A DNA stretch of 55,215 bases from positions 1 to 55,215 of IMG/VR virus record IMGVR_UViG_3300002098_000007, one strand, 5' to 3'. Shown piece by piece: positions 5,292 to 53,079 of this stretch. Position 1 is the first letter of the stretch; every line of letters begins with the position of its first letter. A model generated the notes under the pieces. The model ran no database searches. It saw nothing but the letters and a program-made list of their open reading frames with translations, and had not been told where the DNA came from. The position numbers were made by a program, and so were the translations under genes. The stretch comes from a virus.

Positions 5292-5708
5292 ATGTCTAGT
5301 GGTGGTTTACGTAAAGGAGCAGGCCGACCCGCGGGCGCTAAGAACAGCTCCGTGGTGATTGAACCCGCTGCTCGGCGTAAGATTACCGACGCGTTAGTGG
5401 AGAAGGTCGCCGGTATCAACATCACCCCGCTGGAGGTCATGCTCAACGACATGAAGCTCCACCACGACGAAGCGCGTAAGCTGTTGGCCGAGCATGAGCA
5501 CGAGCAAGAGGACGGCGAGCGCAAGGGGCTGCTCATGAAGATGGCTAAGGTGGAGAGCGCGTTGGCTGTTGAGAGCGCGGCCAAGGTAGCGCCTTACATT
5601 CACGCAAAGTTGCAGACCACCACGTTGAAGGGCGACGCCGATAATCCGCTTGAGCTCGCGCTCATGGACGCTTCAACGCTGAAGGCTGCCGTGCGGGGGA
5701 GCAAGTGA
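5292..5708 (+). CDS. terS: Terminase small subunit
   Basis: 138 aa. N-terminal GGLRKGAGRPAGAKN, ITPLEVML and AAKVAPYIHAKL patterns are typical of small terminases. It lies directly upstream of and overlaps the large subunit. Confidence 0.65.
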   Translation: MSSGGLRKGAGRPAGAKNSSVVIEPAARRKITDALVEKVAGINITPLEVMLNDMKLHHDEARKLLAEHEHEQEDGERKGLLMKMAKVESALAVESAAKVAPYIHAKLQTTTLKGDADNPLELALMDASTLKAAVRGSK

Positions 5709-7300
5709 ACACCGTTGCGGCCGAGTATGAGAGCTGCTTGGATGTTCCGTTTGAGGCGGTCATCGACTACTGGGACACGACCACCGCCGGTGGTCGAGAT
5801 TTGAAAATGGTGCGTGCGCTGGCGTTGTGGGATCGTTACTTCCTGCTCGTGCAGATCTTCGGTCGTAAAGACTTGCTGCATCCTTGGCTCTACGCCCGCT
5901 GCCGGGAGGTCGAGCGCGCGCCGGACGGGTACTTGGACATCTATGGACGCGAGCACTACAAGTCCACAATCATCACCTACGCGGGGGTGATTCAGGAGCT
6001 CCTGCGCGACCCGGACATCACGATCGGTATCTTCAGCCACACCAAGGGTATAGCGCGAGCTTTTTTGCGACAGATCAAGGTCGAGCTAGAGAGCAATCAG
6101 CGGTTGAAGACGCTTTTCCCTGATGTACTATACGCCGACCCACAGGAGCAATCCCCTATGTGGTCACTAGACACGGGGCTCATTGTCAAGCGCCGCACTA
6201 ATCCCAAAGAGGCCACGGTTGAGGCCTGGGGCCTGGTCGACGGGCAGCCGACCTCAAAGCACTTTGCGCTCATGGTTTACGACGACGTGGTGACTCGCGA
6301 GTCGGTGAGCACCCCGGAGCAGATAAGTAAGACTACCGAGGCATGGGAGCTCAGTGACAACCTGGGTGCCCAAGGCGGGCGTAAGTGGCACACGGGCACC
6401 CGGTACTCTTACGCAGACACGTATCAAGAGCTGATGAAGCGCGGGGCCGTCAAGCCCCGTATCTACCCGGCGACGGCTGACGGGACTATCACCGGTAAGC
6501 CCGTGTTGTTTGACCAAGACACTTGGAACAAAAAGGTACGCGACCAGGGCGAAGCGACAATCAGCTGCCAGATGCTGGCCAACCCGCTCGCGAGGCACCA
6601 GCGGATGTTTGACGTGCAGGACTTGGTCGACTACGAGGTGCGCCCCGAGACGCTCGCGGTTTACCTGCTGATTGACCCCGCACGTAGCAAGAAAAGCGAC
6701 AGCGACGACACCGCGATGGCGGTAATAGGGCTTGACTACGCAAACAACAAATACCTGCTGGATGGTATGTGCCACAAGATGGATCTGATGGAGCGGTGGC
6801 AGAACACCGCTCGCCTGTACAGCCATTGGAAGACCCAAAGCGGAATTCAGGCAATCTACGTGGGGTACGAGAGCTTTGGTGCTCAGTCGGACTTGGATTA
6901 CTTCCGCGAGCAGCAGAAACTGACCGGCCTCCGTTTTGACATTACCGAGCTGGCTTGGCCCCGCGAGGGTGGAGGCAGCAAGGTCGATCGCGTGCAGCGC
7001 CTGGGCCCCGACTTCCGTAGTCATAAGTTCTACGTGCCGTACAAGACAGATGAGAAGAACCTGACGAGCAACCAGCGTAAAATGGTAGACGGCTACAAGT
7101 ACCGCATTAGCAAACCGATACGGCGCAAAAACGAGAACAACGAGATTTACGACCTCACCGAGCTGCTCAAGTTGCAGGTTCACTATTTCCCCTTTGGGGG
7201 TAAAAAAGACCTGGTGGACGCGGTGAGCCGCATTTACGACATGTCTCCCCGGCCACCCACCTACCGCGAAGCCCGCTACGCCGAGCCCGAATTTGTTTAA
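5705..7300 (+). CDS. terL: Terminase large subunit
   Basis: 531 aa with a GTG start overlapping the terS stop (GTGA). ATPase-like GREHYKST and LMVYDDV motifs are followed by a nuclease-like C-terminal half (LLIDPA...DDTAMAV). Position is immediately before the portal block. Confidence 0.8.
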   Translation: MNTVAAEYESCLDVPFEAVIDYWDTTTAGGRDLKMVRALALWDRYFLLVQIFGRKDLLHPWLYARCREVERAPDGYLDIYGREHYKSTIITYAGVIQELLRDPDITIGIFSHTKGIARAFLRQIKVELESNQRLKTLFPDVLYADPQEQSPMWSLDTGLIVKRRTNPKEATVEAWGLVDGQPTSKHFALMVYDDVVTRESVSTPEQISKTTEAWELSDNLGAQGGRKWHTGTRYSYADTYQELMKRGAVKPRIYPATADGTITGKPVLFDQDTWNKKVRDQGEATISCQMLANPLARHQRMFDVQDLVDYEVRPETLAVYLLIDPARSKKSDSDDTAMAVIGLDYANNKYLLDGMCHKMDLMERWQNTARLYSHWKTQSGIQAIYVGYESFGAQSDLDYFREQQKLTGLRFDITELAWPREGGGSKVDRVQRLGPDFRSHKFYVPYKTDEKNLTSNQRKMVDGYKYRISKPIRRKNENNEIYDLTELLKLQVHYFPFGGKKDLVDAVSRIYDMSPRPPTYREARYAEPEFV

Positions 7301-41332: not shown

Positions 41333-41680
41333 TCAGTCTTCCGCCGTTAAAAACTCGTTCAGCTCAGCCGCGTCAAAGTCCCAGCGCTGAGGCACGTATT
41401 TGAAGTCCACTTTGTCCCACTTCAACACGTCCACCAGGCCGTGCTTTTCGGCAATCGCAATCATAGCTATACCGCAGAGCGTAGGGTCGCCGCTGATGAG
41501 CAAATAATCGCCCGGAACCCATTCGCCGAGCACCTTGCGAGCGTGAACAATCATCCGGGGGGTGTTATAGTTCCGCGCCACGTTGCCAAAGACATCCCGC
41601 AACGCGCCGTAACGCTCCGCGTCGGAGTAATTCTTGCGGCTGTCGTTATGCACGATGAACACTATACGTTCGTTATTCAT
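41333..41680 (-). CDS. Hypothetical protein
   Basis: 115 aa, overlapping the polymerase gene end by 8 nt. Confidence 0.55.
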   Translation of the reverse strand: MNNERIVFIVHNDSRKNYSDAERYGALRDVFGNVARNYNTPRMIVHARKVLGEWVPGDYLLISGDPTLCGIAMIAIAEKHGLVDVLKWDKVDFKYVPQRWDFDAAELNEFLTAED

Positions 41681-43511
41681 CTTTCTTTTTCCTCTTAGTT
41701 TTCTTTACTTCTACCCGGGCGAGTAGCTCGGGTGTTAAATACTCGGCGCAGCCGATGTCGCAGGAAATCTTAACCGCCTCGGTAATATACCACTCGTAGT
41801 CCAGGTCGGCGGGGTGCTCGCCCTGCGGGTCAATAGTCATACACGCGCGGGCGCCGTCAGACTTAGGCACCTTGTTGCCGTTAGTCTTGTACCGGATAGG
41901 CTCCAGCGCGGGATCATTGCTCTGATACCACCGCACCACCTTGCCCAGGTAGTTACCCATCTGCTCACCACCGCCGGTCACGTTCCGCGCACTTATAAAG
42001 TCCACAAATGGCGCGTTTTTAATGGTTTCAGCAAACGCCGTACCCCGGGCCAGCCACTGGCCTACAGCAGCCGCACAAACTCCCGCGGTGGCGTTCTTTT
42101 TTAGGCTCAGAGGGGCATAAATACCCTTCTCTTTAAGCGAGCGGTCAGGCTTCACCGCGATGTAGTTATTTACGTCCTTCATCGCCAACGCGCGGTAAGG
42201 CGTGAACTCAAAACGCAGCCCGGTGTGGAGCTCAAAAGCCTTTACGACGTTCTTCACCGTTTCTTCAATCTTACGGGGATAGCCTACTGCAATACCGTCA
42301 GTGTTCGCGCTTAAGGTTACGGCCTCAACCTGCTCAAGTCGCTCAATCAACATGAGCAGCGTGAACTGCCCAGTGAGCGTTACGGCGAGCATGAACTCCG
42401 GCGCGTACAGCACCGAGTATTTGCTAGCGAGCTTGCCGAACGTGCCGTTGAGCGAAATCTTCAACGTCTCATTGGTAGCCTTGTCGCCCGTGCGCTTGGC
42501 CTCGATTCGTTTGTCGTAGATCTTGCGGTATTCGTCCAGGAACTTCGACCCCACGGCCTCTGGGTACATACCGGCGAGCAAAATGAGTGAGGGGTAGAAC
42601 GACTCGGCGTCGATGTCGCATATGACATAATCCTCCCCCGCGACGTGACATACCTTACGGTCATGCGCGCTATGAATACCCCCCACGCCGAGCTGATAAA
42701 CACCGCCGTTAAACCCGACGAGCTCTTCCCCCAGGAAGTCCGGCAGTATGACGTGTCCGCTGAGCGGATTCATACGGAACGTGTGCTCGCTCACCCGTTT
42801 GAGCAGCGCACGCAGGTACTCGTTATTAAAGCACAAGAACCCGGGTGGAGCATAGCGAATGGTCTTAGGCACGGGAACATCTTGTCGCTTCAACTTGAGC
42901 GTGGCAATGTACGCCGCCTCTGCCATCTGCGAGTCCGACTTGCTACGCATGTCCACCCCATAACGGCGACTCATATCCACGCGGAGCAGCAGCTCTGAGT
43001 CTAAACGACGTAGCAGCTCTTCAGTCGTGTCTAGGTCGTTCCAGTTGTACTCGTCAATCTGCTGCTTCTGTTCATCGTTGACCTCGGCGTCATGCGCCAA
43101 CGGCATGTCCTGCAACTTGGGCATGTGCATTCGCGCGCCGTAGGCTTTTAAACCTACAAACGAGGGCGCAACTTCAATCAAGTCGATTGAGTCAAACGGC
43201 ACAGGCGCTAAGTTGAACTGTCGGCGCGCAACCCAGGGTTTTAAACGCCGCACGATGAGCGCATCCGCAATGCGTTTGATTTCTAGCTCAGTCCGCCCTG
43301 CGCAGAACGCATCAACAATCACATCGTCAAAAGAATGATTATTGAATCCGACAAAAGTGGTGTCCGGTTGGAGCATGAACTCACGCAGGCGTGCCGGGGC
43401 GTCAGGCTCATTGCGGCGAAACTGCTTACGGCGGCCTGAGTCGACATCCTTAAACCCGACCACTGTGTAATTGGGCAGGGTCTCAAAATCGAATACAAGG
43501 GTAGGCATCAA
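41673..43511 (-). CDS. Family B DNA polymerase with a 3'-5' exonuclease domain
   Basis: 612 aa. Exo motifs: FDFET, NHSFDD, YNWND. Pol motifs: A DIDAESFYPSLI, B KISLNGTFGKL, C SANTDGIAV. Confidence 0.8.
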   Translation of the reverse strand: MMPTLVFDFETLPNYTVVGFKDVDSGRRKQFRRNEPDAPARLREFMLQPDTTFVGFNNHSFDDVIVDAFCAGRTELEIKRIADALIVRRLKPWVARRQFNLAPVPFDSIDLIEVAPSFVGLKAYGARMHMPKLQDMPLAHDAEVNDEQKQQIDEYNWNDLDTTEELLRRLDSELLLRVDMSRRYGVDMRSKSDSQMAEAAYIATLKLKRQDVPVPKTIRYAPPGFLCFNNEYLRALLKRVSEHTFRMNPLSGHVILPDFLGEELVGFNGGVYQLGVGGIHSAHDRKVCHVAGEDYVICDIDAESFYPSLILLAGMYPEAVGSKFLDEYRKIYDKRIEAKRTGDKATNETLKISLNGTFGKLASKYSVLYAPEFMLAVTLTGQFTLLMLIERLEQVEAVTLSANTDGIAVGYPRKIEETVKNVVKAFELHTGLRFEFTPYRALAMKDVNNYIAVKPDRSLKEKGIYAPLSLKKNATAGVCAAAVGQWLARGTAFAETIKNAPFVDFISARNVTGGGEQMGNYLGKVVRWYQSNDPALEPIRYKTNGNKVPKSDGARACMTIDPQGEHPADLDYEWYITEAVKISCDIGCAEYLTPELLARVEVKKTKRKKKDE

Positions 43512-43762
43512 CGATCCTGATTCACGTAACTTGAAGTGGGTTCTTCGCCGTTGTCAAGAATCTTGTTCTGAACCTCGATATATTTCTCCAAGAAATGCAA
43601 CGCCTTCTGCAGGTCGGTAATACCGTTCTTCTTTTTCCAGCGAGTGACGTACTTGGTGATTTGAGCCTGGAAATAGTCAAGATCATTAGCCAGCACGTAG
43701 TCCCAGTGCTGAATGCTAGATTTATAGTGCGAGCCGCCCACTTGTTTGTCATTTGCTTTCAT
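43508..43762 (-). CDS. DUF3310-family protein
   Basis: VGGSHYKSSIQHWDY...ITKYVTRWKKKNGITDLQKALHFLEKY. ATG 43762 was chosen because the ORF-track start at 43780 is TTG. Confidence 0.6.
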   Translation of the reverse strand: MKANDKQVGGSHYKSSIQHWDYVLANDLDYFQAQITKYVTRWKKKNGITDLQKALHFLEKYIEVQNKILDNGEEPTSSYVNQDR

Positions 43763-44252
43763 TTGCGTACATTTCCCCAATCAGTTTAAACAGTTTGTAT
43801 TCTTTGTGCACGGGCATCATGTCCCATGCGTAGGACATATACCGATGATACACATCGGCCATTTTGTGGTTGCCGAGCTGAATTTCACGAATGCAGAACA
43901 GCGCGCCATGGGCAATGTCGGCTAGTTTCAGAGTGCGATATTCCCAGTCTTCCAGGTCAGGTAACGGGAAACCGCCGTCCTTCAGCAGGGACTCCTCAAC
44001 ACGGCTGACTTGATCACCGATGCCGTAGAGACGTTTTGCGGGAGAGGGAATGTCGCCGGTTTTTTGCTCAGCCAGGTCATGAACCAGCGCGGCGGTTAGT
44101 AATTCAGCGGTGGCGTCTGGAACCATGAGTAGGCATAACAACGCAACACCGTGAGAGTGATGCCCCACGGTGTCCGCGGCTAGTGTGCGTACGGTATGAT
44201 ATCGGCGGACATCCGACCCGTTGAGCATAAATTCCAAGTTTGAAAGGTTCAC
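43749..44252 (-). CDS. HD-domain phosphohydrolase, YfbR-like 5'-deoxynucleotidase
   Basis: 167 aa with a GTG start after GGAGA. Motifs: RYHT...TVGHHSHGVA, VHDLAEQKTGDIPSPAK, KLADI. Confidence 0.75.
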   Translation of the reverse strand: MNLSNLEFMLNGSDVRRYHTVRTLAADTVGHHSHGVALLCLLMVPDATAELLTAALVHDLAEQKTGDIPSPAKRLYGIGDQVSRVEESLLKDGGFPLPDLEDWEYRTLKLADIAHGALFCIREIQLGNHKMADVYHRYMSYAWDMMPVHKEYKLFKLIGEMYANESK

Positions 44253-44291
44253 TTCAGTTCTCCAGTTATACAGTTAAAAAGCTATGCTGCG

Positions 44292-44325
44292 AATTTTAGC
44301 CCTGTTTTTACGCAGGGCTAAAATT
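44292..44325. other. Perfect 13-bp inverted repeat (aattttagccctg / cagggctaaaatt) forming a stem-loop
   Basis: Stem 44292-44304 / 44313-44325 with an 8-nt loop. It lies in the 72-nt gap between the ThyA-like and HD genes, and the right arm abuts the ThyA-like stop codon. Confidence 0.8.
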
Positions 44326-45311
44326 TATTTTTCTGCCAGTGCGAGCTCCCGGCGATGAATCCAATCGTTAGCGGCGCGGCGAATGTCTTCATGAGTGATT
44401 TTGGCAGCCCAAGCGGAACCGTCACCGGCTTTAGTCTTACGGGTGTGGCTGATCATAGCGAGGGGGTAGGCCACGTTGGTGAAGAACGGGTGAGAGTAAC
44501 GGCGGATTTTAATCGGATCATCGCAGAACAACTCACACTCTTCAAGAAACGTGCGGTAGCTACCCGCACCGAGTATAGGCGCCGGGCGCACCAGGCACGC
44601 TGAATACAAGTCGTAGTCCTCGGCCACCGGGGGGTTCTCAATATACTTAGTCGCTGAGTACAACTCAGTATACAAGTGCAGGTTGGTACTGAAGGTGCGG
44701 TACACCCCCAAGTTGACACACACCGCGGAGGCTACAAACTCCTGCACAACGCTGAAGTGAACGATATTAGCCCCGGCGTAACCCCACCACGCATCGTTGC
44801 TACGGTTAATCACCGTCATGTTGAGCTTTTCGTTCTGAATTTCAAAGATGAGCTGCATGTTGCAGGCTTTGTCTTTAGTGTTTTTGGTCAAATCTTCCGG
44901 GGCCCACATCTGCACCACGGCCTGGCGGGTGTCGTGGTTCTTGCGCAGTTGTTGAATGACCTCAATCAACTGATCGTTTCCAAAGTGATGACGCCAGCGG
45001 TAACCATAGGCAGCGTTAAAAATCTTCCCGTTGTCCGAGTACGCCCCAATCTTGCTGTTGAAGCGCTTCAAAAACGCGACGTCGCGCCGCCCGGCGAGCA
45101 TCCAAATCGGCTCCAACATGTGGAAAATGGGGTTAGCGTCTCGCCCATGGTGAAACAAGATACGCTCCTGAGGATACTTTACAGTTGTCATTACAGGCTC
45201 GGGGATGCGCAGGGCAGGGCCATTGCGCGTTTCAACCGGAATGCCAGAGGTCTTCAAACGCCAGAACATATCTTGAAACATTGTATTTGCGTTACGTGTG
45301 GTGATTTCCAT
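44325..45311 (-). CDS. Divergent thymidylate synthase (ThyA)-family enzyme; candidate dUMP hydroxymethylase
   Basis: 328 aa. Motifs: YGYRWR, DQLIEVIQQLRKNHDTRQAVVQMW, KACNMQ (Cys nucleophile retained; PCH->ACN), RSNDAWWGYAGANIVHF, STNLHLY. A ~60-aa C-terminal extension is present. Confidence 0.7.
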   Translation of the reverse strand: MEITTRNANTMFQDMFWRLKTSGIPVETRNGPALRIPEPVMTTVKYPQERILFHHGRDANPIFHMLEPIWMLAGRRDVAFLKRFNSKIGAYSDNGKIFNAAYGYRWRHHFGNDQLIEVIQQLRKNHDTRQAVVQMWAPEDLTKNTKDKACNMQLIFEIQNEKLNMTVINRSNDAWWGYAGANIVHFSVVQEFVASAVCVNLGVYRTFSTNLHLYTELYSATKYIENPPVAEDYDLYSACLVRPAPILGAGSYRTFLEECELFCDDPIKIRRYSHPFFTNVAYPLAMISHTRKTKAGDGSAWAAKITHEDIRRAANDWIHRRELALAEK

Positions 45312-45313
45312 CT

Positions 45314-46171
45314 TCAGAACTCCGTCTCAGGTTTGTAAAGTGTTCTAGGGGCGCCTTCGTTAAAGATCACCTTGCAGTATTTACTATACTCGCAAAGGCA
45401 ATTCTGTACGTCATGTAGTGTCAGGTCGGTTATACTCAACTTGTCAACGATTTCAGCCCTTATTTTGATGAGCGCCGCGTTGAATGAGTCTTGATTCCAC
45501 GTGTGATACGGCTTGAACCCGTAGACGTAATTCAGCCCGCGTTGGCTACCGGGGCCTAAGGGCGCAAAGGTATGCAAGTCCGGCGCCCGGCCCAGTTGCC
45601 GCCGCATATAGGTCAAATCTGCTGCGACCTGCCCCGCGATGAAGGTGCTGACGCCGAAACACTTAGACATTTCATGCACAAAGCCCTCAATTCGACCGGC
45701 GCGCAGCGCCATACGGATGAGCGGGGCGCGCTTAATCACGTCGCTAATTATGTGCTCACACATAGCCTCAGCTTTACCGCGGCCCTTGTTCTTTGTCGGA
45801 AAGACCATATACGCGCCCGAATAGACTTTGCCGTGTGTTTTAGCGTCCTCAACAACTTTTATGAACCCCGCAGCGTTGAAACCCTCCGCGTAGGTTGGCA
45901 ACACCTTGGCATCAATCAGCCGCTGCAGAGTCGGCGGCCAGTTGATTAACCGAGCCAGGAACAGCGTGAACCACAAGTCCGGTGCGTCAGCCTGGGGGGC
46001 GATTAGGTGATCGATGATCCACTTTGAAACCCTATCGTCTTTGCGACGGATATTAGTGAATTTGTACTTCTGTAGAACTAAGTCTTTAGTCCATGGGGCG
46101 GGCGCCCCGGCCTCGCGCTTCAAGCGAATTGACTCGCGCTCAAACACAAACTCTAACAACATGTCATTCAT
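45314..46171 (-). CDS. Candidate aGPT-Pplase-type DNA base hypermodification transferase (285 aa)
   Basis: The N-terminal ERESIRLKREAGAPAPWTKDLVLQKYKFTNIRRKDDRVS motif is recalled for alpha-glutamyl/putrescinyl thymine pyrophosphorylase-like proteins. The gene is sandwiched between the ThyA-like gene and the P-loop kinase. Not verified by search. Confidence 0.45.
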   Translation of the reverse strand: MNDMLLEFVFERESIRLKREAGAPAPWTKDLVLQKYKFTNIRRKDDRVSKWIIDHLIAPQADAPDLWFTLFLARLINWPPTLQRLIDAKVLPTYAEGFNAAGFIKVVEDAKTHGKVYSGAYMVFPTKNKGRGKAEAMCEHIISDVIKRAPLIRMALRAGRIEGFVHEMSKCFGVSTFIAGQVAADLTYMRRQLGRAPDLHTFAPLGPGSQRGLNYVYGFKPYHTWNQDSFNAALIKIRAEIVDKLSITDLTLHDVQNCLCEYSKYCKVIFNEGAPRTLYKPETEF

Positions 46172-46749
46172 TGCTCGAACTCCCAGAAGACCTGCACCAG
46201 CGAAGGATGCGGGTCGGTGTAATTGATCACGCGTACATCAAACCCCCCGGCAGCTTTCAGGTTACGGTAGCAGTTCACCACGCTTTTGAACTTGTCTACT
46301 AGGTTCACAGGGTCAAAAGGTTTAGCGTTACCCGCAGCGGCCCGGCGGCCTTTTACGCGCTCGATGCACAACTCCTCAGGGGTGTTCAAAAACGCGTACA
46401 CATCGCACCCCGTGGGGTGAATAGACTGCGTAACCGCACCCGCGAGCCCCGAGGCTGAGACAAGGGCGCCCTCGAACAAAACATGCCCCCGGGCGTGCGC
46501 CTTGTGTATACGCTCGGCAATCTCGTCCTGAGTCTTGATTGAATCCGTCCCACCGCAGACGTTGTCGTATTTGCCGACTATAAAGATCGGCTGCTGTACG
46601 AGCGCCGCGCTCGCGTCACACTTGTAACCCATGATTTTACCCGCCGAGTTGCGCAGTTCGGTAGTGGGGTATCGAGTCATGAACTCGCGCACCGCGGTGG
46701 TCTTACCCGAACCGAACGTACCGCGAACTGAGAGTATGGCTCGCCTCAT
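46168..46749 (-). CDS. P-loop kinase; candidate 5-hmdU DNA kinase
   Basis: 193 aa. Walker A RGTFGSGKTT. Small size and ATGA coupling on both sides fit the call. Confidence 0.55.
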   Translation of the reverse strand: MRRAILSVRGTFGSGKTTAVREFMTRYPTTELRNSAGKIMGYKCDASAALVQQPIFIVGKYDNVCGGTDSIKTQDEIAERIHKAHARGHVLFEGALVSASGLAGAVTQSIHPTGCDVYAFLNTPEELCIERVKGRRAAAGNAKPFDPVNLVDKFKSVVNCYRNLKAAGGFDVRVINYTDPHPSLVQVFWEFEQ

Positions 46750-46925
46750 TTCTCACCCCCGAACGCCAAGTGCAGCAACAAATACCACATCGCTAAATGT
46801 GCGGCGTCAGATCTGCCCGTTTTATTGAACACTTCCGCGTAGTGTTTGTGCCAACCGTAGTTGTCGCTGCCGAGGGGTAAATTGCTCAGCCGCTTAAGCG
46901 CATGCTGCCGTTGCTTGGGTGTCAT
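46746..46925 (-). CDS. Small hypothetical protein (59 aa)
   Basis: Not in the ORF track. It reads MTPKQRQHALKRLSNLPLGSDNYGWHKHYAEVFNKTGRSDAAHLAMWYLLLHLAFGGEK. Its stop overlaps the kinase ATG (ATGA), and it starts 3 nt after the upstream stop. Confidence 0.45.
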   Translation of the reverse strand: MTPKQRQHALKRLSNLPLGSDNYGWHKHYAEVFNKTGRSDAAHLAMWYLLLHLAFGGEK

Positions 46926-46928
46926 TTG

Positions 46929-47954
46929 TTATTCCTTTACGTTATAGCGCTCGGGCCGGTACTCACCAAGCCTGATGAGCGAACCCGTCGCGGGGAAAAT
47001 TTTAGCCTTTTCCGCAACGCTGCGGTATTTATTTTCGCACTCAGCGCGGAGCCAGTTTGGCAGCCTATCGGAGCGTATGTCTTTGAATACTTCGGTATAT
47101 TCCTGCAGGTTGCGTTCATCTGCCCATAGGATCCGCTCCCAGGCCATATCAGCGTAAACCCCAGGGTAACGACGACCGAAGAAGTGATTCTTAAACGTGC
47201 ACAAGTTGCTCTCAAGTGTGAATAGAGAGGCGCCGGTCAGCTCGGGGTGTTGAGACTTGAACAGATCGAGCCAAATGTCCGCCCCCGCGGCTAAGAAGGC
47301 ACACATCGGTTTGAAGTTATTGTATTCACCGGTCTGCCCGTTAGGTAGCCGCTTGTCCCACACGAGATCATCTTTACCGAGCAGGAACAGCATTCCGTTA
47401 CGGTGCGACTTGCTGCCCGACTTGTCCTCAAACAACAGACTGTCACAGTCCGCGCCGAACCCCTTCAGGTAGACATACTCCAAGTAGCTGAATGAGGACA
47501 ACCGTCCGAATGAGTAGTAATTCCCGCGCACCAGCGTCCAGAGCTGTGAGTACGTTTTACCGCTCAGCATTCCCTCCTGAGAGCCATGACTATCAACCAG
47601 TTCAGCGTATCTCTTTATAGCTATTACGGTTTCTTTTTTCTGATACCTGCGGTCTGTATCGAATTGCAATGTGTCCCATTCGCTGTTGAACCACTCTTCA
47701 AACTTGCTGAGTGTTGAGCCCGCGGGCGGACACTCGGGCAGGCGTTCAAACAGCCTGAGAGAGGTGATAGGGTTCTGCGTCATGCCGTTGAGGAACGCGA
47801 ACCATAACTTCTGCTCAGCGCCCCACCCGTTACGCTGCGCCAGCTCGGGCATGTACAAGTATACCAGGCCGGGCATAATCCGGTGCTCTAGGTTCATAGC
47901 GTACAAATCCGTAAAGAACTGATTTCGGTTTTCCGGCAGTCGGTAGTCAATCAT
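46929..47954 (-). CDS. Candidate second DNA-hypermodification transferase (aGPT-Pplase clade-2 / amino-acid:DNA-transferase-like), 341 aa
   Basis: A large helical protein with no motif I can place in a housekeeping family. Its position inside the kinase/ThyA/PLP cluster supports the call, but the family assignment rests on context and memory only. Confidence 0.35.
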   Translation of the reverse strand: MIDYRLPENRNQFFTDLYAMNLEHRIMPGLVYLYMPELAQRNGWGAEQKLWFAFLNGMTQNPITSLRLFERLPECPPAGSTLSKFEEWFNSEWDTLQFDTDRRYQKKETVIAIKRYAELVDSHGSQEGMLSGKTYSQLWTLVRGNYYSFGRLSSFSYLEYVYLKGFGADCDSLLFEDKSGSKSHRNGMLFLLGKDDLVWDKRLPNGQTGEYNNFKPMCAFLAAGADIWLDLFKSQHPELTGASLFTLESNLCTFKNHFFGRRYPGVYADMAWERILWADERNLQEYTEVFKDIRSDRLPNWLRAECENKYRSVAEKAKIFPATGSLIRLGEYRPERYNVKE

Positions 47955-48084
47955 TCAAACTCTCCATTATTCCAAGCGCGGCAATGTACATAAAAAGCAA
48001 CCCGACTAAAGCCACAACCCCCACCCCAAGCAGTGCGCAAAGGACAAAGACGTTAGCAACGTCTTCAAATATAACAATATTCAT
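47947..48084 (-). CDS. Small membrane protein (45 aa)
   Basis: Not in the ORF track. It reads MNIVIFEDVANVFVLCALLGVGVVALVGLLFMYIAALGIMESLND and overlaps the downstream start by 8 nt. Confidence 0.4.
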   Translation of the reverse strand: MNIVIFEDVANVFVLCALLGVGVVALVGLLFMYIAALGIMESLND

Positions 48085-48086
48085 AC

Positions 48087-48299
48087 TCACCACCTTACGT
48101 CAGATTCAAGTCTGCGATCAACCGCGAACCCGAGCGCTAAGCCGAAAACCACGGTAAAGTAACGCGCCGACCATGCCCAATCTACCGGATTACGCGACCA
48201 TTCCACAAATGCACCTAAGGCGTAAGCAAACGCTAAGGTGCTGGCAAAGGGCATAAACCAGTACAATACGTGCCCCAGGTCGGTTGCGAGTTTTTTCAT
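48087..48299 (-). CDS. Membrane protein (70 aa, two predicted TM segments)
   Basis: ATG 48299 follows GGAGA and overlaps the upstream stop (ATGA). It reads MKKLATDLGHVLYWFMPFASTLAFAYALGAFV...YFTVVFGLALGFAV. Confidence 0.5.
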   Translation of the reverse strand: MKKLATDLGHVLYWFMPFASTLAFAYALGAFVEWSRNPVDWAWSARYFTVVFGLALGFAVDRRLESDVRW

Positions 48300-48484
48300 T
48301 TCGCTTCTCCAGTTATGTTGTGATAGACCTCCACCCAGCGTACGATTTGTTCTAGGCTCTGCCATGGGCCGTAGTTCTTCTGTATAACCTGCGCGGGCAT
48401 GGGCTCAATAATTTTGGCGTCAACAATCACGCCCTCGTGGTCTCGAATCAAAGTTACCGCCTGCGCGGTTGAGGCGTTGCTCAT
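48296..48484 (-). CDS. Hypothetical protein
   Basis: 62 aa, ATGA-coupled to the PLP-enzyme gene. Confidence 0.5.
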   Translation of the reverse strand: MSNASTAQAVTLIRDHEGVIVDAKIIEPMPAQVIQKNYGPWQSLEQIVRWVEVYHNITGEAK

Positions 48485-49440
48485 ACGGGCTCCTTGTGCG
48501 TGTAGAAAGGTTCAATCACTTTAGGGTTAGGGGTCGAGCCTACAATCCAGAACCCGGCTTTGTCATCAAAATTGAGCTCATTATTTTGTCTCAAATAACG
48601 CCAAATTTTTGCCTCGTACGTGGGATGAAAATGAATACCGTCATGGCTCTCCCCTTTGAACTTGTCGCTGTACGCGCTAAACTTCATGTCGTGCAGGCTG
48701 ACATGAGACCAGTGGAAAGGGAGATGATCAATATTAACCCCCATAATCGCCATTCTCTCACGCACCCACTTGCGCTTGTCGGGGCCGATTCCGTAGGTCA
48801 TCAGAAAGTCTACATTTTTAGGGTCTCGGCTCAGGCCGAGCAGGATGCTGCAAAGCGAGTTACACGAGCCCGCGGGCGCTATCAACGTGCGGAGCTCGAG
48901 CGGCAGGTTGCGCACCTGATTGGCACCGACCTCATGAAACTTGAGCACATCCTCCGCGGGGTAGCGGTCATGCGGAACGGTGATGCCGTACTCAACCACT
49001 AGCGAGGCGGGCTTAGTCAGGTCGGCCACGCGGCGTTGAATGATCGGGTTGTACGGCCCATTTACATACTCAAAGTGCGCGCCGAACCCCGCTGCAATAC
49101 GTGGGTTCTCGTGCGTGAGCAGGGTGTGTGGCCTGCTGTAGACCACCTGCCGAGCGATGAGCCCATAGTGTGCTCCTACAATCGCGGACATGCTCAGCTG
49201 CGGGCTCTGCACACTTGCTCCGGTGAGTATGTGAGTCTTCTGCGCTCTGTATCTATTAATGTACCAGATGAGCTGGCGCATCTTGCTGCCGTTGGGGCCG
49301 CCATAGCCTAGCGGCGCAAAGTAATCCTCACGTTTGAACCAGAGCCCCTGGTGATTCTCCCACGGGGTGAACTCGCCCAGGCTCTTCTCCCAATGAACCT
49401 GAGCGCGATCAAGCGTGTGAACAGGAAAAATGCTGCTCAT
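48481..49440 (-). CDS. Fold-type II PLP-dependent enzyme (ACC deaminase / D-cysteine desulfhydrase / Trp-synthase-beta-like)
   Basis: WFKREDYFAPLGYGGPNGSKMRQLIWYI matches the KRED...GGNKxRKL lysine motif region. ATG 49440 follows GGAG. The longer ORF-track start (49596) would overlap the upstream gene by 80 nt. Confidence 0.65.
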   Translation of the reverse strand: MSSIFPVHTLDRAQVHWEKSLGEFTPWENHQGLWFKREDYFAPLGYGGPNGSKMRQLIWYINRYRAQKTHILTGASVQSPQLSMSAIVGAHYGLIARQVVYSRPHTLLTHENPRIAAGFGAHFEYVNGPYNPIIQRRVADLTKPASLVVEYGITVPHDRYPAEDVLKFHEVGANQVRNLPLELRTLIAPAGSCNSLCSILLGLSRDPKNVDFLMTYGIGPDKRKWVRERMAIMGVNIDHLPFHWSHVSLHDMKFSAYSDKFKGESHDGIHFHPTYEAKIWRYLRQNNELNFDDKAGFWIVGSTPNPKVIEPFYTHKEPV

Positions 49441-49516
49441 TTCAAATACTCCAGTATTCCCGTAATAGTGTCTACCACTGAACAAATGGTCATTAGGATG
49501 ATCATTCCTCTGATTT

Positions 49517-49738
49517 TCATGTGTGCTTCTCCCAAAGTTTTTCAAAACACGGTTTGCAACAATCAAATGTGCCATATTCACCACCTGAGCCATCAATAGA
49601 CATAATTGTTGTCACGTTTTCACAAATTTCGCATGTGTATGTACCAATTTCAATACCTACACTTCGACCATAAACAGGTTTTTCAGAATCAAACACTGAT
49701 TTTCTTGTAGCCATCCACGTTTTCCATAATTCAGACAT
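49517..49738 (-). CDS. Zinc-ribbon-like small protein
   Basis: 73 aa with CEIC...CCKPC. Confidence 0.5.
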   Translation of the reverse strand: MSELWKTWMATRKSVFDSEKPVYGRSVGIEIGTYTCEICENVTTIMSIDGSGGEYGTFDCCKPCFEKLWEKHT

Positions 49739-50009
49739 TGTTCTTCTCCAATAAGCTCTTTACCATTAGATAAACGTCATTCCTTGCGGCGTTGTCGACC
49801 TCCAGCTTGTCAAACCCTGCGTAGCGCATCTCGTTCTCGCAGCGTTGCAGCAGCTCATACATCTCGCGCAAACAGTCTGCAGCCTTTCCATGCAAGGGCC
49901 ACTGCATGGTCTTTTCCAACATAGCTGCAAGGCTTAGAGGCTTTGGTAGTTTTCCAACACGCATCAGTTCTGCGGTGTCTTCTTCGGCGCTGTAGTTTTC
50001 TTCAATCAT
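49731..50009 (-). CDS. Hypothetical protein
   Basis: 92-aa ORF. Its start follows the conserved AAGGAGTAA junction. Confidence 0.55.
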   Translation of the reverse strand: MIEENYSAEEDTAELMRVGKLPKPLSLAAMLEKTMQWPLHGKAADCLREMYELLQRCENEMRYAGFDKLEVDNAARNDVYLMVKSLLEKNNV

Positions 50010-52147: not shown

Positions 52148-52389
52148 GCTTCACCTCTTGCTCGGATTGCTTTAGCTGCGGCAGTTCCATAAATCCTCAC
52201 GCCTGTTGGAATATGCGTATCGCAAACCGTCTTTTGAGCAAGAATTGCACACGCCTCACGCTCGGCCTCTGCTACCAGTTTGGCAAAGCGGCTCAAATCA
52301 TGTTTGTCACATTGAAAAAATAAACCATTTGTTGAGTTGTTGATTCCAGCTTGTCTAGCCATTTCAATGATTTCTGTTTGTGTTGTCAT
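52144..52389 (-). CDS. Accessory protein, MARQAG...EREACA...IRARGxA family, copy 1
   Basis: 81 aa. It reads EIIEMARQAG...FAKLVAEAEREACA...AIRARGEA. Confidence 0.6.
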   Translation of the reverse strand: MTTQTEIIEMARQAGINNSTNGLFFQCDKHDLSRFAKLVAEAEREACAILAQKTVCDTHIPTGVRIYGTAAAKAIRARGEA

Positions 52390-53015
52390 GGCTGAACTCC
52401 AAAGTTATATCCAATCAACTGACAGAACAAACGGTATTGCTCTAAATGCTCTTTGTTTTCTTTATGAGATTTTTCGATTTGTTTTGAAAACTCTGCAACC
52501 GTTCCAGTAAAGCAACCACAAACAACTCGAACACCGATTTTTTCATCCATAAAAGCCGTGGTGAATCTGCCTGACGATTTGGCAGGGCCGATCAGTAGCC
52601 AATGAGTTCTATCAGACACTTGAGCATTGCCAGACACCTGAGCATTGCCAGACACCTGAGCATTGCCAGACACCCGAGCATCGCCATACACCCGAGCATC
52701 GCCAGACACCCGAGCATCGCCAGACACCCGAGCATTGCCAGACACCCAAGCATTGCCAGACACCCAAGCATCGCCATACACCCAAGCATTGCCAGACACC
52801 CAAGCATTGTCATACACCCGAGCATTGCCAGACACCCAAGCATTGCCAGACACCCAAGCATCGCCAGACACTTGAGAAAGATTTTTCTCTGATTCAATAT
52901 ATCCACCCAAATCATTAGGCGTTACCAATGAACCAATTGCAACAAGTGCGCGAATTCGGTACAAAGTTTTTCCAAAAACCTGCTTTGTGTCTGTTTTTAC
53001 AAGTTCATATTTCAT
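52386..53015 (-). CDS. Hexapeptide-repeat (left-handed beta-helix-like) protein
   Basis: ATG 53015 follows AGAGGA (MKYELVKTD...). It carries about 15 consecutive 6-aa units, (G/Y)(N/D)A(W/R/Q)VS. The ORF-track start at 53069 lies in a duplicated gene-start remnant. Confidence 0.65.
   Translation of the reverse strand: MKYELVKTDTKQVFGKTLYRIRALVAIGSLVTPNDLGGYIESEKNLSQVSGDAWVSGNAWVSGNARVYDNAWVSGNAWVYGDAWVSGNAWVSGNARVSGDARVSGDARVYGDARVSGNAQVSGNAQVSGNAQVSDRTHWLLIGPAKSSGRFTTAFMDEKIGVRVVCGCFTGTVAEFSKQIEKSHKENKEHLEQYRLFCQLIGYNFGVQP
52613..52876. repeat. 18-bp tandem repeat array, 14 full units plus one partial (cagacacc[c/t][g/a]agcat[t/c]gc)
   Basis: Units start every 18 bp from 52613 to 52865 (counted individually). 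They encode the hexapeptide repeats on the minus strand. Confidence 0.9.
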
Positions 53016-53054
53016 AACAATGCGTCCTCTGTTTGTGCGCGTTGTTGTTGCGCG

Positions 53055-53079
53055 TATCCATGATTTCATCTTGTGTCAT
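53055..53079. repeat. 25-bp direct repeat, copy 1 (tatccatgatttcatcttgtgtcat)
   Basis: Identical to 53279-53303. It carries a second, orphan copy of the MTQDEIMD gene start. Confidence 0.9.

Follow-up and report, generated by a model that had tools for sequence, protein, structure and literature searches.

Closest described systems

Clusters of thymidine-hypermodification genes are already known to be widespread (Lee et al. 2021). We analyzed one more such cluster, from an uncultured phage, situated in the IMG/VR virus record IMGVR_UViG_3300002098_000007 (positions 1 to 55,215; this whole stretch of 55,215 nt is called 'the window' below). The genes in question are two translationally coupled open reading frames (ORFs) on the minus strand, coding for a P-loop kinase of 193 aa and for a 285-aa protein of the family formerly known as clade 1 of aGPT-Pplase. 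An earlier reading of the sequence (the original prediction) took them for the kinase and the transferase of the hypermodification pathway. Our analysis suggests that the interval is probably the conserved 'activation core' of that pathway rather than a kinase/transferase pair, and that the 285-aa protein is rather likely to be a catalytic enzyme acting on 5-phosphomethyl-dU (5-PmdU) in DNA.

Phage PaMx11 has the same gene order as the window: gp46 (amino acid:DNA transferase, AADT), gp47 and gp48 (tailoring enzymes), gp49 (kinase), gp50 (clade 1), gp51 (ThyA-like), gp52 (HD domain) and a DNA polymerase gene; as in the window, the kinase stop overlaps the clade-1 start (5354-5923 and 5923-6810). 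The tailoring enzymes of PaMx11, however, are a flavin adenine dinucleotide (FAD) lyase and an acetyltransferase, with 5-AcNmdU as the product, whereas the window has an enzyme that depends on pyridoxal phosphate (PLP), of the type found in phage ViI; also, the AADT of the window is of another subfamily, ~21-22% identical to gp46. In phage M6 the kinase gene of gp54 adjoins that of gp55, a clade-1 protein ~32-35% identical to the window protein and having the invariant residues, C-E-x-x-K included, in common with it. M6 differs in having Glu at the position of Q256 of the window protein, four residues ahead of the Cys; in an Nmad5 gene that follows gp55 (scanning of window ORFs detected no such gene); and in its route to 5-NedU by a Gly-AADT, a radical-SAM isomerase and a PLP enzyme.

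SP10 gp186 (as well as its Goe26 ortholog) has the same domains, PF18748 and PF18723, as the two window proteins, and the model of the 285-aa protein is superposed on the C-terminal half of gp186 with TMq 0.75; in SP10, though, the domains form a single polypeptide and no clade 2 was detected (PMC5889632 Table 3), in contrast to the two coupled genes and the clade-2 gene of the window. Salmonella phage ViI is similar to the window in possessing an AADT (gp247, a Ser:DNA transferase), a PLP enzyme (gp226), kinases (gp67/gp243), a clade-1 protein (gp160) and no radical-SAM gene. Identities are ~28-36%, and the ViI genes are scattered over a myovirus genome of 157 kb, whereas those of the window make a compact cluster in ~55 kb of DNA with YuA/PaMx11-like organization. 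The cluster of the window is a mosaic that combines a core like that of YuA/PaMx11 with transferase and PLP genes of ViI type, and it is carried by an abundant group of uncultured phages.

Genes of the cluster

The genes that the argument needs are as follows.

46168..46749, minus strand: ORF of the 193-aa P-loop kinase, starting MRRAILSVRGTFGSGKTT; Walker A GxxxxGKT
45314..46171, minus strand: ORF of the 285-aa protein, clade-1 aGPT-Pplase / HMUDK_hel, starting MNDMLLEFVFERESIRLKREAGAPAPWTKDLVLQKYKFTNIRRKDDRVS; PF18723, phrog_2396
46168..46171, minus strand: ATGA start/stop overlap of the kinase and clade-1 genes (plus strand 'tcat')
46929..47954, minus strand: ORF of the 341-aa clade-2 aGPT-Pplase, predicted AADT; PF18724
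48481..49596, minus strand: ViI gp226-type PLP-dependent enzyme, predicted decarboxylase, 371 aa; phage homologs, phrog_3650
44325..45311, minus strand: ThyA-like protein, predicted dUMP hydroxymethylase, 328 aa; PF00303, phrog_5131

The sequence features named in the original prediction were all found as described: the Walker A motif of the 193-aa ORF (GTFGSGKT, residues 10-17), its ATGA coupling to the 285-aa ORF ('tcat' at 46168-46171) and the 2-nt gap between the latter and the ThyA-like ORF (45312-45313). The 285-aa ORF begins with an ATG that shares bases with the kinase's TGA, and a GGGAG Shine-Dalgarno-like element is located 8 nt upstream of that ATG. Given the strong profile matches, the many homologs, the conserved order and the recurring overlap, both ORFs are genuine genes, not chance ORFs.

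The kinase matched PF18748 (HMUDK_HMUD1) at residues 5-158 with 32.7 bits (E 6.8e-8), a modest margin over the gathering cut-off of 27; generic AAA families of Pfam stayed below their own cut-offs. The protein is 36% identical to PaMx11 gp49 (E 4e-28), 30% identical to M6 gp54 (E 4e-14, 180 residues) and 23% identical to the SP10-type kinase domain (E 1e-8). M6 gp54 was assayed as a kinase on DNA containing 5-hydroxymethyl-dU (5-hmdU) (PMC8989533). Genes of a dUMP hydroxymethylase and an AADT accompany the kinase gene in its locus. A weak partial PHROG match to thymidylate kinase (E 2.8e-6) was judged not to outweigh this evidence. Profile and homologs together indicate that the 193-aa protein is a member of the 5-hmdU DNA kinase family, the identity given to it originally.

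Kinases of this type are often mislabeled: the label 'terminase small subunit' is found in PHROGs (phrog_800, E 9.5e-18 for the window kinase) and also in the GenBank records of phi_M6 (L001:5411-5974) and PaMx11 (L002:5354-5923), a propagating mis-annotation. NCBIfam gave no useful matches for the kinase, the clade-1 protein or the AADT.

The 341-aa protein scored 55.2 bits (cut-off 26.2) against PF18724, ADDT 'amino acid:DNA transferase', the family to which a direct Pfam scan also assigned M6 gp51. Its segment LESNLCTFKNH aligns with VETILCKWKSH of the M6 gp51 / PaMx11 gp46 alignment; E248-S249-N-L-C252 corresponds to E243-T244-I-L-C247 of PUGT, and K255 and H257 are invariant as well. In PUGT, E243 and T244 are metal ligands and C247 is the catalytic nucleophile (PMC11472151, PMC13458397). 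A match of the clade-2 profile to the PUGT structure 8Z2M was discounted as present by construction (the profile included PaMx11 gp46), and for this reason the fold search was made with an AlphaFold2 model built from window-group sequences only (pLDDT 89.2). The only meaningful PDB matches of this model were three PUGT chains of 8Z2M/8Z2N (probability 1.00, TM 0.52-0.61). Judging from family, motif and model, the 341-aa protein is an AADT, predicted to displace the phosphate of 5-PmdU.

The relatives of this AADT among cultured phages are actinophage and ViI-type AADTs, not those of M6 or PaMx11, with the best matches in Mycobacterium and Glutamicibacter phages. Its best match in the protein collection was only 73% identical, compared with 100% for the 285-aa protein (P0001); perhaps another start was called. 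The ThyA-like protein was identified by PF00303 (76.5 bits) and phrog_5131 (E 3e-99) and is 38% identical to PaMx11 gp51 (E 9e-78). Although predicted from sequence, the family assignments of the locus proteins (hydroxymethylase, kinase, clade 1, clade-2 transferase and PLP enzyme) are in our opinion nearly certain.

Family, conserved residues and fold of the 285-aa protein

The 285-aa protein matched PF18723 with 148.5 bits (cut-off 25, E 3e-43), its residues 3-272 corresponding to profile positions 5-278 of 281. This was its sole Pfam match, with none to PF18724 at E <= 0.01. PF18723, the former aGPT-Pplase clade 1, now has the name 'HMUDK_hel' or '5-hmdU DNA kinase, helical domain', while homologs in GenBank and UniProt are labeled 'aGPT-Pplase1' or 'alpha-glutamyl/putrescinyl thymine pyrophosphorylase clade 1'. 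The nomenclature is a trap: 'aGPT-Pplase' covers two families of which only clade 2 is a proven transferase, and the renaming of clade 1 as a 'kinase helical domain' had no functional evidence behind it.

Consequences for the original prediction are mixed. A profile search against both families, which it had recommended, placed the kinase in PF18748 and the 285-aa protein in PF18723 only. The name aGPT-Pplase holds for the 285-aa protein in the historic sense, as its homologs carry it, and fails in the sense intended, since the protein is of clade 1 and not of the transferase clade 2. The idea of a kinase/transferase pair found no support: transfer has been shown only for clade 2, M6 gp55 is dispensable, and the clade-2 enzyme of the window is the 341-aa ORF. 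It is to this neighboring ORF, outside the interval first considered, that the attributed reaction belongs, because the 341-aa protein is the one matching PF18724.

Direct Pfam scans found PF18723 in M6 gp55, in PaMx11 gp50, in a 411-aa ViI-type protein and in the kinase fusion of SP10 type, there in the C-terminal half. At E <= 1e-3 the 285-aa protein had 842 homologs, and the clade-1 family comprised 4,703 representative clusters (clustering at 50% identity).

Residue conservation was determined for the 150 best clade-1 representatives with <=50% mutual identity. Three residues near the C-terminus stand out: C260 (149/150), E261 (148/150) and K264 (148/150). Near-invariant, too, are R12, D30, N40, R43, D46, R74, F177, D185 and the G206-P207-G208 hairpin. 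The N-terminal hallmark PWT..F.N..R..D, on which the original prediction relied, is real; W27, T28, F38, N40, R43 and D46 vary little or not at all. All family-invariant residues are present in the window protein, each of them being kept in 129-149 of the 150 representatives. Members of M6, PaMx11, ViI and SP10 type have the motif E-x-x-x-C-E-x-x-K, with Q at the first position in the window subfamily; in Q256-N257-C258-L259-C260-E261 of the window protein the Cys is invariant, and Gln and Asn fall, by a weak alignment, on the Glu and Thr positions of clade 2.

The AlphaFold2 model of the 285-aa protein is all-helical (pLDDT 89.7, pTM 0.88). Its best PDB fold matches were glycosylases of the helix-hairpin-helix (HhH) GPD type, Ogg and AlkA (E 0.15-2, TM 0.35-0.54, 11-13% identity); the PUGT structures 8Z2M and 8Z2N were absent from the top 50. 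Among viral models the top matches, all of clade 1, were SP10 gp186 and proteins of phiRSL1, PhiW-14 and of Microbacterium and Nodularia phages (TMq 0.73-0.87); for PhiW-14, SP10 gp186 and phiRSL1, TMq was 0.75-0.87 with E from 9e-17 to 1e-8. Clade-2 viral models were matched with TMq of only 0.45-0.59 at Foldseek probability 0.99-1.00. A solved clade-1 structure was not found (0 matches of the clade-1 profile to PDB sequences at E <= 10), phmmer searches of the PDB sequences with the 285-aa and 341-aa proteins gave chance matches only, and BLASTP of one of these proteins against the other gave no match.

With broader profiles, hhalign brought clades 1 and 2 into a weak alignment (E 0.014, probability 3%), collinear over 228 columns, in which FG...VA(A)D, G-x-G-S..R-x-G and likewise (E/Q)-x-x-x-C coincide and C260 falls on the catalytic Cys and Q256 on the metal-binding Glu of clade 2. 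What the clade-2 enzymes (PF18724; 8Z2M, 8Z2N and the YuA enzyme) and the 285-aa protein have in common is an all-helical HhH-containing fold, an invariant Cys in a C-terminal helix and, by that weak alignment, the collinear (E/Q)-x-x-x-C; they differ in being distinct Pfam families and in the C-E-x-x-K motif and N-terminal W-T...F-x-N-x-x-R-x-x-D block of clade 1. Because the C260/E261/K264 set is near-invariant and the Cys aligns, if weakly, with the clade-2 nucleophile, a catalytic character of clade 1 is suggested. From residues and model we read the 285-aa protein as a putative distant homolog of the transferases that would keep a cysteine-centered active site, rather than as a passive 'helical domain'.

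P0334 (461 aa) and P0337 (406 aa) are fusions of clade-1 domains with a YpsA/SLOG domain in circularly permuted form (PF12694, E 3e-36) and with an HhH-GPD-like N-terminal segment. Fusion to a kinase as a general rule of clade 1 was considered and rejected, with a kinase in 0/10 of the long family members checked. The notion of a second, pyrophosphate-forming kinase was dropped, as the all-helical HhH protein has no nucleotide-binding fold.

Conserved core and variable cassette

Gene order was compared across 80 related IMG/VR viral loci from the phage group to which the window belongs (51-60% identity), the ratios below referring to loci with enough flanking sequence. The gene next upstream of clade 1 was the kinase in 71/71 related loci, and the one next downstream was ThyA-like in 79/79; the AADT was present in 58/58 and the ViI-type PLP gene in 28/36. 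The clade-1 start, scored as the nearest in-frame start at the junction, overlapped the kinase stop in 70 of 77 related loci (by 8 nt, n=37; 4 nt, n=27; 11 nt, n=6).

The same core exists in M6, in cyanophage Pam3 and in a Rhizobium phage. Kinase and clade 1 lie side by side in M6, PaMx11, Pam3 and Bustleton, have one small ORF between them in the Rhizobium phage and form a fusion in SP10-type phages. One locus, L083:677-5227 (IMG/VR 3300033066_000512), keeps the order of kinase, clade 1, ThyA, HD and polymerase genes and has, in place of the ViI-type AADT and PLP genes, a PaMx11-type cassette made up of a 292-aa ADDT, a GNAT acetyltransferase and an FAD oxidoreductase. This natural cassette swap predicts a different base, 5-AcNmdU-like. 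Since kinase, ThyA and clade 1 are constant while the cassette varies, clade 1 belongs to the invariant core together with kinase and hydroxymethylase, and not to the variable decoration module.

The PLP gene was missing from 8 of the 36 loci with enough upstream sequence (L046, L049, L050, L053, L055, L056, L060 and L068). In L049, L053, L055 and L060 an AADT of 338-385 aa is preceded by a 167-171-aa ORF without family assignment. Loci of this kind may stop at the amino-acid adduct or use another tailoring step.

Distribution of clade 1

One group of phages replaces every T by means of a ThyA-like hydroxymethylase. Some others make 5-hmdU in place, on selected thymines, with ParB-dependent TET/JBP dioxygenases (PMC13229309). 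In Mycobacterium phage BobbyK, ParB is accompanied by a Tet_JBP-like protein, an ADDT and a PF18751 kinase; its whole 70.9-kb genome is without clade 1 according to the hidden Markov models that recovered all other clade-1 genes, the divergent ViI-, SP10- and Microbacterium-type ones included.

The comparison was extended to 14 viral loci with AADTs of BobbyK type (46-99% identical). Clade 1 was found in 0/11 of those of ParB/TET-JBP type, a small sample of partial contigs with <=10 kb of flank, BobbyK excepted. It is directly upstream of ThyA in both evaluable ThyA-type loci (L103 and L107), a third one, L106, ending at that point. In the ThyA-type Glutamicibacter phage Montesquieu, clade 1 adjoins the hydroxymethylase and is located away from the AADT/PLP/kinase cluster. 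In Microbacterium phage Bustleton (L010, MK814762.1, 36348..37821) gene 54, a PF18751 kinase, overlaps the clade-1 gene 53, with a ThyA-like gene 47 in the same genome; ~42 Microbacterium phage records carry a clade-1 gene of Bustleton type.

In the loci compared, the distribution of clade 1 tracks full T-to-5-hmdU replacement, not decoration chemistry, and the pattern is clean though the sample is small. That it holds among closely related AADTs makes a purely phylogenetic artefact less likely.

Proposed role of the 285-aa protein

The pathway that we propose would start with the ThyA-like enzyme supplying 5-hmdUMP, so that nascent DNA carries 5-hmdU for T. The 193-aa kinase would then produce 5-PmdU in DNA; the 341-aa AADT would attack C6 via Cys252, eliminate the phosphate and add an amino acid; and the ViI-type PLP enzyme would decarboxylate the amino-acid adduct. 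The 285-aa protein, made along with the kinase, would be a second catalytic base-flipping enzyme with C260 as nucleophile, acting in parallel to the AADT on the same phosphorylated base.

As for its reaction, the most likely one in our view is formation of ordinary thymine, which would be the default fate of 5-PmdU at positions that do not become hypermodified: Cys260 would add at C6, the phosphate would leave and the exocyclic methylene would be reduced. The premise is that virion DNA of such phages would hold hypermodified T and ordinary T, and no 5-hmdU. The enzyme converting 5-hmdU to thymidine is still to be identified (PMC5889632); a clade-2 enzyme supplemented with borohydride turned 5-PmdU into thymidine, the exocyclic methylene being reduced (PMC8989533). 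From a paralog with a biological reductase function one would expect co-expression with the kinase, independence of the decoration, need only where all T is 5-hmdU and a kept Cys; all four are seen in clade 1. A thymine-forming role would explain co-translation with the kinase, constancy across cassette swaps, presence in the ThyA-route (full-replacement) phages examined and absence from the ParB/TET-route phages examined, in which selected thymines alone are oxidized.

A number of observations weigh against this account. M6 gp55 was omitted from a lysate reconstitution without loss of glycinylation, and the kinase domain of SP10 gp186 phosphorylates without its clade-1 half; such dispensability is compatible with a separate reaction and is no demonstration of one. 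The 285-aa protein has no recognizable NAD(P)H-, flavin- or folate-binding domain to supply a hydride. Thymidine formation is not reported, in the portions of the sources available to us, for lysate reconstitutions that included ViI gp160 or M6 gp55, and no defined activity of clade 1 is reported in PMC5889632, PMC8989533, PMC11472151 or PMC13458397. The equivalence of C260 with the catalytic Cys depends on the alignment of 3% hhalign probability, a first hhalign of clade 1 against clade 2 having given 0.08 and no significant relation; in addition, at the place of the clade-2 metal ligand the window subfamily carries Gln instead of Glu. The TET-type sample is small. In two phages with clade 1, clade 2 was not detected: it was not detectable in the whole 39-kb genome of Bustleton, and SP10, which makes alpha-glutamylthymine, is reported to lack it (PMC5889632 Table 3). 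A transferase role of clade 1 fits such clade-1-only phages at least as well.

Thus graded, catalysis on 5-PmdU DNA remains the probable function of the 285-aa protein, while the narrower proposal that clade 1 is specifically thymine-forming, taking leftover 5-hmdU to thymine, is tentative and, on balance, rather doubtful. The main value of the analysis is a sharpened hypothesis for the orphan clade-1 family, one that makes the 5-hmdU-to-thymine step directly testable. If true, it would complete the pathway and enlarge, by a new DNA-base-editing activity, the toolbox that already serves 5-hmU mapping.

Alternative functions

Clade 1 could be a non-catalytic accessory of the kinase, i.e. a DNA-binding or base-flipping module for recruitment, site choice or processivity, as the Pfam name implies. 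The fusion to the kinase in SP10-type phages (F8WQ30 included) and the overlap of start and stop codons in 70/77 related loci would fit such a role, an HhH DNA-glycosylase-like fold suits DNA binding, and M6 gp54 alone phosphorylated ~23% of 5-hmdU in vitro (PMC8989533), whereas hypermodification is sequence-context specific; the phyletic pattern, too, would be explained if a ParB-like protein does the targeting in TET-route systems. On the other hand, the near-absolute conservation of Cys-Glu-x-x-Lys and of Asp/Arg residues across 150 distant representatives is what one expects of an active site and not of a scaffold; kinases are active by themselves in vitro, even SP10 gp186 without the clade-1 half; clade 1 adjoins the hydroxymethylase, away from the kinase, in Montesquieu, L103 and L107; and none of the extra domains in the ten long family members checked is a kinase. 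We consider an accessory function unlikely.

Still less probable, though with a handful of facts in its favor, is that the 285-aa protein itself puts an amine or amino acid in place of the phosphate, as a second transferase having perhaps another nucleophile or sequence context than the AADT. It would share its overall fold with clade 2 (Foldseek probability 0.99-1.00, TMq 0.45-0.59) and its invariant Cys aligns weakly with the catalytic one; SP10 makes alpha-glutamylthymine with a clade-1 domain alone, clade 2 having gone undetected (PMC5889632 Table 3), Bustleton has clade 1 and a kinase with no detectable clade 2, and Iyer et al. 2013, as quoted in PMC8989533, named both clades for predicted activity. 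Against this, all demonstrated amino-acid or amine transferases (M6 gp51, ViI gp247, PaMx11 gp46, PhiW-14 gp109, and those of phage 15599 and YuA) are clade 2, that is, PF18724 and never PF18723 (PMC8989533 Table 1; PMC11472151; PMC13458397), and M6 gp55 is dispensable for the formation of N-alpha-GlyT. The window protein has no PF18724 match and no significant hhalign relation to clade 2. Furthermore, clade 1 stays invariant across changes of the tailoring cassette and is missing from TET-route systems that still hypermodify, and the phage already possesses a complete clade-2 enzyme.

A DNA glycosylase or lyase unrelated to 5-PmdU, e.g. one removing uracil or thymine or countering host repair of 5-hmdU DNA, is very improbable: the best solved-structure matches are indeed 8-oxoguanine and 3-methyladenine DNA glycosylases, one family member has an extra HhH-GPD-like N-terminal segment, and association with full T-to-5-hmdU replacement would suit the management of 5-hmdU DNA, but the resemblance to these structures is weak (E 0.15-2, TM 0.35-0.54, 11-13% identity), the invariant set has a Cys at its center, like that of the clade-2 enzymes that attack C6, coupling to the base kinase is tight and specific (clade 1 occurs only with a P-loop kinase in the systems examined), and SPO1, which retains 5-hmdU in its DNA, is without aGPT-Pplase (PMC5889632).

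Tailoring enzyme and predicted product

A tblastn search with the PLP enzyme retrieved 348 phage records, almost all of them Ackermannviridae, with 32-36% identity over residues ~49-364; these homologs are annotated as PLP-dependent enzyme or threonine ammonia-lyase. The 371-aa ORF had weak NCBIfam matches to fold-type II PLP enzymes and no Pfam match. Its TTG start is probably called too far upstream, because homology to the ViI-type proteins begins at about residue 49-55 and relatives have ~324 aa.

Genes for radical-SAM, FAD or acetyltransferase enzymes were not found among the other minus-strand ORFs of at least 115 aa that were scanned. Since the PLP enzyme and, less markedly, the AADT have ViI-type relatives among cultured phages and none in M6 or PaMx11, and since no radical-SAM isomerase was found, the predicted product would be a 5-NeOmdU-like base formed via O-linked serine; we see the evidence for and against it as evenly balanced.

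Other features of the window

The window appears to be a complete metagenomic contig. Its layout is siphovirus-like, with a long plus-strand arm of large ORFs and a minus-strand arm devoted to replication and modification. Nucleotide relatives were not found by megablast of positions 43500-50000 against 50,697 phage records, so that the phage has no near relative in culture among them. The remaining features around the cluster are listed here.

46746..46925, minus strand: 59-aa ORF, in ATGA overlap with the kinase start ('tcat' at 46746-46749)
43749..44252, minus strand: HD-domain / YfbR-like 5'-deoxynucleotidase, 167 aa; PF12917, 39.3 bits; syntenic with PaMx11 gp52
44291..44326, no strand assigned: hairpin with a 15-bp stem, ATTTTAGCCCTG...CAGGGCTAAAAT

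The 59-aa ORF, 3 nt before which the 341-aa ORF ends, had no Pfam or PHROG match and is poorly conserved, with a homolog in only 3/80 related loci; some relatives have a different ORF of ~70 aa at its place. The hairpin starts directly at the stop codon of the ThyA-like gene, ahead of the Shine-Dalgarno sequence and GTG of the HD gene, and may be a terminator or an RNA-processing element closing the AADT-kinase-clade1-ThyA unit.

Farther along the minus strand, a 612-aa ORF (41673..43511) occupies the syntenic place of the 'DNA polymerase' genes in M6, PaMx11 and Pam3. It gave no Pfam match at E <= 0.01, and its orthologs in L005 and L006 are likewise without a precomputed Pfam family; its stretches DIDAESFYPSL, KISLNGTFGKL and NTDG have what we take to be a polymerase-like appearance. 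A 227-aa ORF (52386..53069, minus strand) contains four YdcK beta-solenoid repeats (PF18836, E 7e-21) and has a weak bactofilin match; a protein with such repeats is unusual for the early/replication arm of a phage.

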